Part shown: positions 1,349-3,658 of the stretch, in pieces | How the letters are laid out: every line of letters begins with the position of its first letter | Position numbering within the stretch: position 1 is the stretch's first letter | Sequence record: PZ809289.1 | Source: a phage | Strand: one strand, 5' to 3' | DNA length: 64,000 bases | Notes under the pieces: model-generated | What the model saw: the letters and a program-made list of their open reading frames with translations, nothing else | Told to the model about the DNA's origin: nothing | Databases searched by the model: none | Translations under genes and position numbers: made by a program

Positions 1349-1527
1349 ATCAAATTTGACCAGACTATTCCTAAAAATAGTAATATGCTTTAAGAGTAAT
1401 GTGTTATTATTACTCTAACATTATTAAGTAACCCTCTATTACCAAAGGTTCTTCCCTCAAAGAACCTTTCATAATAGACAAGGTCTATTAATCAAACTTA
1501 CTTTACTTAATTTTATTTGAGGTGTTT

Positions 1528-1794
1528 ATGTTAGTATTAAAATTAGCTTTTTACGACCCAGAAACCAAGACAACAACTACCAAACGTTGTTCTATTTCAT
1601 ATGAATGTCAATTTGGCGAAGTTGAGACTGATGGCGAGCCCTTTATGGCAATTGCCGATAGCACATTCGCTAAACCAAAAATAATTCCACTAGTTAACGC
1701 TGCGGCTTATCTGGTTGCTCCTGAAGAAATGACTTATCATACAATTCAGCACATGGCTAAAGATGATAATGCTCCTGCTGGATTTGTAGTTTGA
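1528..1794 (+). CDS. hypothetical protein
   Basis: ATG 1528 after GAGGTG; ends 5 nt before tRNA; no recognisable motif. Confidence 0.35.
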   Translation: MLVLKLAFYDPETKTTTTKRCSISYECQFGEVETDGEPFMAIADSTFAKPKIIPLVNAAAYLVAPEEMTYHTIQHMAKDDNAPAGFVV

Positions 1795-1799
1795 TTTAA

Positions 1800-1870
1800 G
1801 GCCCTGTAGCTGGACGGTCGAGCGAGCGACTCATAATCGCTGGATGGTGGTTCGATTCCACCCAGGGCCA
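1800..1870 (+). tRNA. tRNA with CAT anticodon (Ile-lysidine type or Met)
   Basis: Cloverleaf by hand folding: acceptor GGCCCTG/CAGGGCC, anticodon stem AGCGA/TCGCT with loop CTCATAA, T-arm GGTGG-TTCGATT-CCACC; CCA not encoded. Confidence 0.75.
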
Positions 1871-1911
1871 TATTTTGAGAACATAAATACTCTTAGAAAT
1901 AGGAGATATTT

Positions 1912-2577
1912 ATGTTCCATTACACTTATAAAATAACAAACAAAATTAATAATAAAATCTATATAGGTGTCCATTCAACCGAAAATTTGAATGATGCATA
2001 TTTTGGTTCCGGTAAACTCTTGAAAAGGGCCCAGGCCAAATACGGTATAGAAAATTTCTCTAAAGAAATATTAGAGTTCTTTGACGATAAAATCTCTATG
2101 TTTGAGTCAGAAAAGAATATTGTGACTGAAGAGTTTTTAAAGCGCCCCGATGTTTATAATTTGAAATTAGGCGGTGAAGGTGGTTGGGACCATTTAAACA
2201 CCGAAGAATATTTAGATAAAAAGAAAGAAGCTTCCTTAAAAGGAGTTGCTGCTTTTAAAACCAGATTTGAGAACGACCCAGACCTTAAAGAAAAATATCG
2301 TAAAATGGGTTCAGAAAGGTTTAAACAACTTTGGGATAATCCTAAGTATAGAGAGAAATTTTCAAATACTAAATCTTTCTTGGGTAAGACCCATTCAGAT
2401 GAAACCAAAAATAAAATTAAAGAATCTCACGCCAGAAATAAACACCAACAAGGTGAAAATAATTCCGGATATGGAAAAATGTGGATTCATTCTTTAGAAG
2501 AAAAAGTTTCTAAACGTATTAACAAAACGGATATTATTCCTGAAGGTTGGAATAAAGGCCGTAAAATAAAATTTTGA
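1912..2577 (+). CDS. segB: GIY-YIG family homing endonuclease (segB-like, within tRNA cluster)
   Basis: N-terminal YTYKITNKINNKIYIGVHST (GIY..YIG), basic C-terminal DNA-binding repeats; sits between two tRNA genes as T4 segB does; SD AGGAG. Confidence 0.75.
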   Translation: MFHYTYKITNKINNKIYIGVHSTENLNDAYFGSGKLLKRAQAKYGIENFSKEILEFFDDKISMFESEKNIVTEEFLKRPDVYNLKLGGEGGWDHLNTEEYLDKKKEASLKGVAAFKTRFENDPDLKEKYRKMGSERFKQLWDNPKYREKFSNTKSFLGKTHSDETKNKIKESHARNKHQQGENNSGYGKMWIHSLEEKVSKRINKTDIIPEGWNKGRKIKF

Positions 2578-2582
2578 ATTAC

Positions 2583-2657
2583 GTCCCGCTGGTGTAATGG
2601 ATAGCATACGATCCTTCTAAGTTTGCGGTCCTGGTTCGATCCCAGGGCGGGATACCA
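2583..2657 (+). tRNA. tRNA-Arg (anticodon TCT)
   Basis: Acceptor GTCCCGC/GCGGGAT with encoded CCA, anticodon loop CTTCTAA, T-arm CCTGG-TTCGATC-CCAGG. Confidence 0.8.
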
Positions 2658-2659
2658 AA

Positions 2660-3036
2660 TGAAGACTATTATATAGTCAAGCCGTCGTATGAAGACTGAT
2701 TACCAGCATTCACCGGCGCAACAAACAAGAAACCGGGTCGCTACCGGTAAGTCGTCGGACTGATGTTCCCTGAGTAAGGACTGGCATTAACAAATCTTTA
2801 CGATCTGTTAACGTCCCCTTACATCACAGCAGAAACGGCGCACCGAATTATCGATTCGAGGAAATATCTTTGCCGTAAGCCGAGTAGCGTTTTTGACGGA
2901 ACGTTCGGATATGGTCGAGATATGGCCTTTTAAAAATATTGAGTGGCGTCAACTACTTAATAACCGGGTTCGAATCCCGGCGTTTCGTACAAACACTTGC
3001 CTAGCAGGTGGAACCCCGACAAGGTTACCCTAGGTT
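2660..3036 (+). ncRNA. ORF-free structured region downstream of tRNA-Arg; candidate stable small RNAs (T4 species 1/2 RNA position)
   Basis: About 380 nt with no ORF in any frame, GC-rich paired segments, a T-arm-like CCGGG-TTCGAAT-CCCGG element, ends at a terminator. Confidence 0.3.
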
Positions 3037-3038
3037 AA

Positions 3039-3068
3039 AGGCCCTTCCGAAAGGTTGGGCCTTTTTTG
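3039..3068 (+). terminator. intrinsic terminator (hairpin plus T-run)
   Basis: GGCCCTTCC-GAAA-GGTTGGGCC followed by TTTTTT. Confidence 0.6.
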
Positions 3069-3076
3069 TATAAATA
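3069..3076 (+). promoter_or_regulatory. T4-type late promoter TATAAATA
   Basis: Exact TATAAATA about 28 nt upstream of ATG 3104. Confidence 0.45.
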
Positions 3077-3103
3077 TGTAGTTAAACTAACCTAGGAAAT
3101 AAT

Positions 3104-3658
3104 ATGAAACTTTTAAAATATTTGAGTTGGGTACTGTTGGTTCCTCTAGATTTTATCTCTATGGTTCTGGCTGTTATCCTTGCACCATTTGTGGTTCCTT
3201 TCCACAATAAAAAGACCGGTAAATTGCCTTATGGCTTTGATTGGATGATGACATACGATAATCCAATTGACGGTGACAAAGGTCATATTAAACGTTGGGC
3301 TAAAATCAGGAAAATGCCAGGTGGTGTTTATCTCCAGAGAGTAGCCTGGTTATGGCGAAATAAAGCTTATAACTTTGCTTATCATAAACTTGGACGCGAT
3401 TGTAGTTCGGAATTCCATTATCGTGGTAATCCTGACGTAGAATCAGGTTCTCCTGATAAAGCTCATCATGGGTGGCTATGGATGTGGAATGACGACGCCT
3501 GGGGTGTATTTGCTTCAGTTCCTTATCTTAAGGTTGGTGGAATCACATTTTACCTTCGAGTGTACTGTGGCTGGAAGCTTAAAAGTCTTTTGTCTCGTAA
3601 AATCCCTAAGGCTATGTTAGCCTTCCACATAAACCCATTCCGGTTCTACAAGAACTGA
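3104..3658 (+). CDS. membrane protein, unknown function
   Basis: SD AGGAAA; N-terminal hydrophobic segment; flanked on both sides by the same terminator sequence. Confidence 0.6.
   Translation: MKLLKYLSWVLLVPLDFISMVLAVILAPFVVPFHNKKTGKLPYGFDWMMTYDNPIDGDKGHIKRWAKIRKMPGGVYLQRVAWLWRNKAYNFAYHKLGRDCSSEFHYRGNPDVESGSPDKAHHGWLWMWNDDAWGVFASVPYLKVGGITFYLRVYCGWKLKSLLSRKIPKAMLAFHINPFRFYKN

Follow-up and report, generated by a model that had tools for sequence, protein, structure and literature searches.

Bacteriophage T4 carries eight transfer RNA (tRNA) genes in a cluster that also includes two further RNA genes, rnaD and rnaC, encoding species 2 and species 1 RNA, respectively. The latter carries T and psi and is a substrate of RNase III in vitro. 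A middle promoter lies directly upstream of the T4 tRNA gene cluster, and transcription is said to end after the species I gene (PMC2330249). The same work describes a hairpin that occludes the ribosome-binding site (RBS) of segB and shows that SegB cleaves site-specifically at the DNA encoding the tRNA T-loop, with preferential inheritance in co-infection (PMC2330249). In T4, RNAC and RNAD have been assigned to the late class, and a Northern blot was made with a probe for RNAC (PMC9697503). A convergent single-nucleotide polymorphism in rnaD was found during host adaptation of a T4-like phage (PMC12685909). The roles of both RNAs are stated to be unknown (PMC3014915; PMC9697503; PMC12685909); the open-access literature that we searched gives no function for either of them, and the species I papers of the 1970s were not found by title search. 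Here, we describe a region in a 64,000-nucleotide (nt) stretch of phage DNA (record PZ809289.1; the whole stretch is referred to as the window) which very probably is a trimmed T4 tRNA operon, a known locus type, in a Dhakavirus-like T4-type phage. The locus as such is ordinary, a reduced T4 tRNA operon typical of JS98/Dhakavirus-type phages, which is already known and present in GenBank in near-identical copies. The structural model of its last RNA gene, rnaC, alone may be new.

The layout of the locus (Table 1) was derived by alignment with the annotated T4 and RB3 records and transfer of their coordinates. Positions 1700-3200 are matched by 766 phage records, with LHE83 (Dhakavirus) at the top (96.3%), and the non-coding part, positions 2655-3075, by 804, with QL01 (Dhakavirus) at the top (99.8%). 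In the records of T4, RB3 and Aplg8, tRNA-Arg is followed by rnaD and rnaC in identical order, and the window aligns with all three throughout these genes. The T4 order Ile-segB-Arg-rnaD-rnaC is wholly kept, while the upstream block of Gln, Leu, Gly, Pro, Ser and Thr tRNA genes present in T4 is absent. The small open reading frame (ORF) found in its place also occurs in LHE83, QL01 and AnYang, where it is labelled 'hypothetical protein'. A first-pass annotation of the window, made from the sequence alone, had proposed two tRNAs, CAT at 1800-1870 and Arg-TCT at 2583-2657, as compared with eight in T4, separated by a segB-like endonuclease and followed by stable small RNAs similar to T4 species 1 and 2. 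All of these proposals agree with our results: ARAGORN and Rfam find the same two tRNAs, the T4 record annotates eight, the intervening gene product is related to SegB, and the downstream stretch aligns base for base with the annotated rnaD and rnaC genes, in direct orthology. Orthology and gene order are shown here, and so are the presence of two tRNAs, the kinship with SegB and the fold of rnaC.

Table 1 Features of the tRNA operon region, with positions in the window.
Feature	Position	Strand	Basis or remarks
Candidate T4-type middle promoter	1384-1410	+	MotA-box-like TATGCTTTA, 12 nt, TATTAT; just 3' of the trna.2 homologue
ORF, 90 amino acids	1522-1794		No Pfam match; occupies the slot of six T4 tRNA genes (Gln to Thr)
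tRNA, anticodon CAU	1800-1870	+	No encoded CCA; ARAGORN; Rfam tRNA, 59 bits
Hairpin over segB Shine-Dalgarno sequence and AUG	1879-1917	+	Perfect 11-base-pair arms, 1879-1889 / 1907-1917; inverted-repeat search
segB orthologue, free-standing GIY-YIG homing endonuclease, 221 amino acids	1912-2577	+	ORF, Pfam, identity to T4 SegB
tRNA-Arg (UCU)	2583-2657	+	CCA encoded; ARAGORN, Rfam
Insert, about 64-67 nt	2658-2724	+	Between tRNA-Arg and conserved start of rnaD
rnaD (T4 species 2 RNA) orthologue	about 2725-2845	+	Mapped from T4 and RB3 annotation
rnaD 5' hairpin	2732-2748	+	
rnaD long-range closing stem	2751-2757 / 2836-2843	+	
rnaC (T4 species 1 RNA) orthologue, oversized tRNA-like cloverleaf	2851-2989	+	T4/RB3 mapping
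rnaC terminal (acceptor-type) stem	2852-2858 (CGAUUCG) / 2981-2987 (CGUUUCG)	+	7 positions, invariant tandem U.U in the middle
rnaC long bent hairpin in D-arm position	2859-2928	+	70 nt
rnaC apical loop UUGACG of long hairpin	2893-2898	+	Proposed kissing partner of 2947-2952
rnaC A-rich linker	2929-2936	+	
rnaC hairpin in anticodon-arm position	2937-2962	+	9-10 base pairs
rnaC 6-nt loop CGUCAA of anticodon-position hairpin	2947-2952	+	Proposed kissing partner of 2893-2898
rnaC T-arm CCGGG-TTCGAAT-CCCGG	2964-2980	+	Perfect; directly abuts terminal stem
Trailer hairpin CACUUGC-CUA-GCAGGUG	2994-3010	+	Fold; between rnaC and terminator
Intrinsic-terminator-like hairpin	3040-3067	+	GGCCCUUCC-GAAA-GGUUGGGCC, then six U; sequence reading, fold

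In the window, rnaC is the last RNA gene of the tRNA operon, located after rnaD and before the terminator. It matches T4 positions 70908-71046 with 141 of 143 aligned positions identical (2 differences) and thus resembles T4 rnaC (species 1 RNA, 139 nt) in position, predicted fold and sequence; its accumulation as a stable RNA of about 140 nt, as reported for T4 (PMC9697503), would follow by analogy. Homologues were gathered by BLAST walking and pattern scans, which gave 26 distinct sequences, with Tequatrovirus, Dhakavirus, Karamvirus, Gelderlandvirus and Marfavirus among the genera represented. The covariance model brought in further members from Gaprivervirus (SP18), Kanagawavirus and Moonvirus, and these were checked separately. 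All 26 homologues are 142-145 nt long despite divergent interiors, and their consensus fold, as calculated with RNAalifold, is a four-way junction. Across the alignment, 98.9% of the cells form a standard pair and 24 of the 38 pairs have changed on both sides. These values were not reached by any of 500 shuffles, and slid partners were paired in 39-52%. With this covariation and some 800 phage records containing the stretch, the element clearly exceeds what chance would produce. A covariance model built from the alignment gives 124-163 bits for the members (160 bits for the window copy) and at most 24 bits for the next best matches, which are tRNAs. The minimum free energy fold of the window rnaC has a z-score of -4.25.

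The first-pass annotation had noted a perfect T-arm in this stretch without a matching acceptor stem. The T-arm is indeed present and perfect, albeit one base to the right of the positions then proposed (2963-2979). The acceptor stem, on the other hand, exists: positions 2852-2858 pair with 2981-2987, and since this terminal stem covaries (A-U to G-C), its reported absence was an error. The T-stem covaries as well (G-C, U-A, A-U and U.G). The annotated mature T4 rnaC ends 1-2 nt outside the covarying terminal helix, which is the pattern expected of tRNA-type end processing. The T-loop has one exception, found in the MY742/CIP9-type Enterobacter phages (loci L006, L023, L035 and L037), where the rnaC loop reads UGCAUGC instead of UUCGAAU. 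With this loop, neither the consensus of the T-loop nor the core motif of SegB introduced below is left intact, while the stem and the remaining fold are kept.

In principle, positions 2658-3036 could also be debris of decayed tRNA genes without a function of their own, an alternative that the first-pass annotation had left standing. A perfect T-arm inside a tRNA cluster, a weak tRNA-Sec-like score (16.6 bits) and the loss of rnaC from phages AnYang and P896 without killing the phage are in line with such an origin. It conflicts, however, with the constant length of the element in records of Tequatro-, Dhaka-, Gapriver-, Karam-, Gelderland-, Kanagawa-, Moon- and Marfavirus, with the double changes that hold its pairs across these T4-like genera, and with the report of RNAC and RNAD as late RNAs in T4, where RNAC served as a Northern blot probe (PMC9697503). 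T4 furthermore has its full eight tRNAs along with rnaC and rnaD, and these two are therefore not leftovers of cluster reduction. We consider decay extremely unlikely.

A coding function of the stretch is still harder to sustain. The statement in the first-pass annotation that 2660-3036 contains no ORF stands insofar as no ORF of at least 60 amino acids (aa) lies within 2658-3103, but not in its strict form: a 46-aa ORF with a TTG start (2893-3033) and a 34-aa ORF on the minus strand are present, and many GenBank records carry coding sequence (CDS) features there. Small proteins such as the product of the 46-aa ORF might thus be encoded. However, close relatives differ by single-base indels inside rnaC (alignment columns 59, 75, 81 and 85), the substitutions are pairwise-compensatory, the 46-aa ORF not only starts with TTG but also crosses the boundary between rnaC and the trailer, and the products of this region in T4 are known RNAs. 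This possibility is therefore almost certainly wrong, and we return to rnaC as a structured RNA.

Two loops of its fold may interact. UUGACG, at the tip of the long hairpin, and CGUCAA, the loop of the hairpin in the anticodon-arm position, are exact reverse complements of each other, and this complementarity is perfect in 26 of 26 rnaC sequences. Kosakonia phage 305 and Citrobacter phage NM4.3 show it as well. The stems below the two loops vary, but the loops themselves do not, apart from the F48/Marfa clade, in which they change together to UUGGCG and CGCCAA, i.e., by one A-U to G-C double change. When sequences were shuffled, a complementary run of at least 6 nt between unpaired segments arose in 34 of 5000 cases. 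A 6-base-pair (bp) kissing contact between the two loops is hence probable from the sequence comparison. As the compensatory change is a single evolutionary event confined to one clade, which weighs against the contact, we call it probable and not proven. Attempts to widen the sample brought little: stricter patterns returned the identical 20 viral loci and 12 metagenome loci with little added diversity, and a loosened pattern scan of IMG/VR produced one weak covariance match (17.4 bits, E 0.65) among 100 loci (L039-L138; L139-L147 excluded). These 100 loci of the loosened pattern are nearly unmatched by the model and therefore look like chance matches, and because of the little added diversity the test of the kissing contact stays at one compensatory event. 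Note that an intermolecular dimer would account for the same loop data. If the contact is intramolecular, the 'anticodon' of rnaC is unavailable for decoding.

How does rnaC compare with known tRNA-like RNAs? It shares the terminal stem stacked on a 5-bp T-stem, the UUCGAAU T-loop and the four-way junction with canonical tRNA, with the tRNA-like domain of transfer-messenger RNA (tmRNA) and with the bacterial YrlA/Y-RNA module. Its acceptor-type stem (2852-2858 / 2981-2987) is stacked on a T-arm (2964-2980) whose loop follows the T-loop consensus. In contrast to canonical tRNA, rnaC is 143 nt long and has a 70-nt bent hairpin in place of the D-arm and, in the anticodon position, a stem of 9-10 bp with a 6-nt loop. 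Its terminal stem includes a tandem U.U, and most members do not encode CCA. A D-arm and a 7-nt anticodon loop were not found in it. Neither ARAGORN nor the Rfam tRNA models call rnaC in the window, where ARAGORN also makes no tmRNA call. Credible Rfam matches were not obtained for rnaC, rnaD or the insert at E values up to 10, a BjrC68 match (21.4 bits) overlaps the terminator, and Rfam 15 contains no family for rnaC or rnaD. Homologues of rnaC were not detected in 5,426 E. coli genomes, nor by pattern in the GTDB representative genomes.

Could rnaC nevertheless be an unusual but chargeable tRNA, with its acceptor strand located internally at 2896-2903? It does have a canonical T-arm, in the F48 clade the stem is followed by an encoded U-CCA, an alternative internal stem of 8 bp is possible in T4-like sequences (88% of the cells paired), and the tRNA finders used by the annotators of phages PG7 and KKP_3262 call it a tRNA. 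This internal strand is what underlies both those 95-nt calls and the weak Rfam match to tRNA-Sec. This 93-nt tRNA-like unit was rejected, as the internal stem shows no compensatory change and is broken at one pair in 13 of the 26 sequences, whereas the terminal stem covaries. In addition to the missing ARAGORN and Rfam calls and the lack of a D-arm, the loop in the anticodon position has 6 nt, is invariant and is complementary to another loop. Furthermore, most members end in UACAA, with UCCAA, an encoded CCA, occurring as the 3' tail in the F48/Marfa clade, whereas in phages Melville and Ursula, both of which possess rnaC as well, the tRNA genes that we read have their CCA encoded at the end. 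A chargeable tRNA is accordingly very unlikely. Altogether, rnaC is neither a decayed nor a canonical tRNA.

Labels in public records vary in this respect. In PG7 (L012 1554-1648) and KKP_3262 (L015 1552-1647), the rnaC homologue is annotated over its 3'-terminal 95 nt as 'tRNA-Met' and 'tRNA-Phe(gaa)' of 95-96 nt, and many Tequatrovirus records have 'hypothetical protein' CDSs across rnaC and rnaD. These calls look like misannotation because an RNA family model is lacking.

Two relatives have lost rnaC. AnYang (MK234886.1, Dhakavirus), about 97% identical elsewhere across the locus, carries, when compared with window positions 2846-2992, a clean deletion of exactly rnaC, such that the 3' end of rnaD, ...GGCGCACCG (...CACCG), is joined directly to the AACACTTGCC trailer (AACACUUGCC). 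In P896 (OL451225.1, Gaprivervirus), the rnaC slot is filled by an insert (about 0.5 kb; L008, about 1630-2130) with an annotated 127-aa ORF, and the flanking rnaD on one side and trailer hairpin and terminator on the other have been kept. The trailer hairpin is likewise retained in T4, RB3 and QL01 as well as in AnYang and P896, which have no rnaC. Conversely, in the Karam-, Gelderland- and related loci that we examined, rnaC resides between tRNA-Trp and tRNA-Gly, and tRNA-Trp ends a few bases upstream, leaving no room for rnaD. Since rnaC thus occurs without rnaD in the Karam/Gelderland-type loci and rnaD without rnaC in AnYang and P896, the two are separable modules. AnYang and P896 are natural rnaC knock-outs for a comparison of phenotypes.

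The second RNA gene, rnaD, is 87.6% identical to its T4 counterpart. Between its two near-invariant blocks lies a variable apical hairpin, of which at least three versions occur. RNAalifold predicts 25 pairs, 6 of them with compensatory change, and support for this fold is modest. The window copy has the invariant 5' and 3' blocks, the 5' hairpin and the closing stem in common with T4 rnaD (species 2 RNA, 119 nt). It differs in that T4 rnaD starts 2 nt after tRNA-Arg, while in the window a 64-67-nt insert separates the two, and in the apical hairpin, which is a variable cassette. The insert is lineage-specific: it has no counterpart in T4, RB3, sutha, SP18, Shfl2 and Aplg8 and is present in QL01, AnYang and ABTNLsp5. 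Two small hairpins, 2664-2678 and 2681-2719, are predicted for it. By this arrangement, the rnaD RNA of the window would either be about 186 nt long or be processed further. The idea that the insert is a partial duplicate of rnaD was dropped, the local alignment score of 21 being reached by 84 of 500 shuffles.

Exactly two tRNAs were detected in the 64 kb of genome that the window covers, and the count holds for this stretch. ARAGORN and an Rfam scan at gathering thresholds, in which they score 59 and 48.8 bits, agree on them. A permissive Rfam scan of positions 1500-3300 (E up to 10) yielded no further tRNAs, its best extra match being tRNA-Sec with 16.6 bits, where the gathering score is 47. 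The first-pass annotation would have been overturned by covariance models finding additional canonical tRNAs; none appeared in 1500-3300 or in the window. The tRNA-Arg gene shows zero differences from that of T4 in a four-way alignment. CAU plus UCU is the minimal tRNA set also in LHE83, QL01, AnYang and P896, to which SP18 adds Asn.

The tRNA with the CAU anticodon is likely, on its sequence features, to be a lysidine-dependent tRNA-Ile2, which reads AUA, and not a tRNA-Met. Its best matches among the 5,426 E. coli genomes are genes with a CAT anticodon named tRNA-Ile by PGAP, and it scores 33-41 in alignments with Ile2-type tRNAs as opposed to 15 with elongator and 9 with initiator tRNA-Met. 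The acceptor stem GGCCCUG / CAGGGCC contains the pairs C4-G69 and C5-G68, which we take to be determinants for TilS. The GGCCC start of the acceptor and the anticodon arm GCGAC-CUCAUAA-UCGC are of the Ile2 and not of the Met type; the CAU anticodon, the acceptor start and the GCGAC/UCGC anticodon stem are all common to E. coli tRNA-Ile2 (ileX/ileY type). In addition, the gene occupies the slot of T4 tRNA-Ile. It is the Ile2-type matches, the acceptor and anticodon arms and the low Met scores that lead us to read it as a lysidine-dependent AUA decoder. By sequence it belongs to the RB3/T2 type (65 of 71 positions identical), unlike the T4 tRNA-Ile type (47 of 71), and it differs from E. coli tRNA-Ile2 and T4 tRNA-Ile by a short D-loop and the lack of an encoded CCA. 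The other option, an elongator tRNA-Met, accords with the reading of AUG by an unmodified CAU anticodon and with the Met label given by ARAGORN, by the RB3 and T2-type annotations and by most phage records. In view of the closest E. coli relatives, the scores, the acceptor and anticodon features and the gene position, we consider it unlikely, though by no means negligible.

Two observations on related genes may be added. A 'Met' tRNA of Salmonella phage Melville (L007 808-883) is probably a mislabelled Ile2, possibly a host-derived copy; its sequence presumably equals that of E. coli ileX (tRNA-Ile2) exactly. The nearest E. coli relative of the CAU tRNA, on the chromosome of strain 504838 (L009 301-611), opens a compact cluster of Ile2(CAU), Arg(UCU), Thr and Gly tRNA genes with the same leading CAU and UCU pair. 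This cluster adjoins a DNA methyltransferase gene and may be a tRNA island of a mobile element.

The gene between the two tRNAs is placed as in T4, where segB lies between tRNA-Ile and tRNA-Arg. Its product is 76% identical to T4 SegB across 221 of 221 aa, without gaps and with equal length, and contains a Pfam GIY-YIG domain (PF01541, 24.4 bits; cutoff 22.6) as well as a NUMOD3 match near the cutoff. Identity, length, flanking genes and the RBS hairpin all match the T4 system, and the corresponding activity is predicted here. The published SegB core motif, GGTTCRANTCC, occurs twice in the 64 kb, at 1849 in the T-loop of the CAU tRNA and at 2967 in the T-loop of rnaC, and is lacking in the T-loop of tRNA-Arg (GGTTCGATCCC). 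By analogy with T4, SegB would cut the DNA encoding tRNA T-loops in related segB-less phages and so favour the inheritance of its own locus. The JS98-type lineage has been reported to be devoid of homing endonucleases (PMC2993671); unlike in that report, the phage studied here along with LHE83, AnYang and IME540 carries a homing endonuclease gene at this locus.

The frame of the operon can be drawn in outline. The match at 1384-1410 is placed where T4 has its middle promoter and is therefore a candidate for the operon start. At the other end, the terminator-like hairpin follows the trailer, and at the equivalent place behind rnaC the Aplg8 record has an annotated terminator. A single transcript of about 1.6-1.7 kb would probably run from the MotA-type middle promoter to this terminator, comprising in order the small ORF, tRNA(CAU), segB, tRNA-Arg(UCU), the 67-nt insert, rnaD and rnaC. 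A scan for sigma-70 promoters and terminators gave no information on T4-type promoters. Some further elements lie in and around the region. Between the candidate promoter and the 90-aa ORF there is a strong hairpin (1435-1478; 19-nt arms, 89% complementary, 6-nt loop). An exact copy of the late-promoter consensus of T4, TATAAATA, is located at 3069-3076, right after the U-run of the terminator and upstream of a gene for a DUF7338 protein (3104-3658; Pfam 212.9 bits), and a near-match, CATAAATA, is present at 1882 within the segB RBS hairpin.

We infer the limits of the transcript, its processing route, the identity of tRNA-Ile2 and any function of rnaC or rnaD. Host tRNA-processing enzymes would cut the operon transcript. 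The two tRNAs would supplement the host's two scarcest decoders, those for AUA (via lysidine-modified tRNA-Ile2) and AGA. With ATA at 6.7 and AGA at 5.4 per 1000 codons in the 69 ORFs of the window, codon use fits such a rare-codon explanation for the CAU and UCU pair only modestly. With its acceptor/T-arm coaxial helix of the tRNA kind, rnaC would be expected to leave the transcript as a tRNA does, through 5' cleavage of the RNase P type where its terminal helix starts. The structured segment that then remains between it and tRNA-Arg would be rnaD. As modelled, rnaC appears to be a stable, tRNA-shaped, non-decoding RNA, the 6-nt loop in its anticodon position being apparently locked by the kissing contact. 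Among its possible roles we favour that of a tRNA mimic, which presents only the acceptor/T-arm end and might bind or decoy a protein recognizing this end of tRNA, although this mechanism is deduced from shape and we give it a low probability. Taken as a whole, the proposal that rnaC represents an uncatalogued phage RNA family, tRNA-shaped over 143 nt, with a loop permanently closed by the kissing contact and an exposed acceptor/T-arm end serving as mimic or decoy, is a long shot.

Several points weigh against this picture. The candidate promoter is a regular-expression match only. A simple sigma-70 promoter/terminator scan did not list 3040-3067, and this hairpin carries a U.U/U.U mismatch within its stem. 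For JS98-type relatives, 3 tRNAs are listed (PMC2993671), and ATA and AGA codons are only modestly enriched. The acceptor stem of rnaC has two invariant U.U mismatches; given these and the UACAA tail in place of CCA outside the F48 clade, handling by RNase P and of the CCA type is assumed. In this phage, expression and processing rest entirely on homology to T4. Finally, as gauged from the genomes of AnYang and P896, where it is deleted and replaced, respectively, rnaC is dispensable and accessory.

The locus matters in smaller ways, one of them being annotation: many records call rnaC and rnaD 'hypothetical protein' or 95-nt tRNAs and the CAU tRNA Met, and there is no Rfam model to correct them. 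The cloverleaf backed by covariation, together with the kissing loops, provides concrete mutations for probing the function of T4 species 1 RNA. If the mimic or decoy mechanism were true, the partner of rnaC would be a host or phage protein that recognizes the top half of tRNA, with enzymes of processing or repair and defence nucleases that attack tRNA as candidates, and a T4 RNA that has been without a function since the 1970s would gain one that can be tested.

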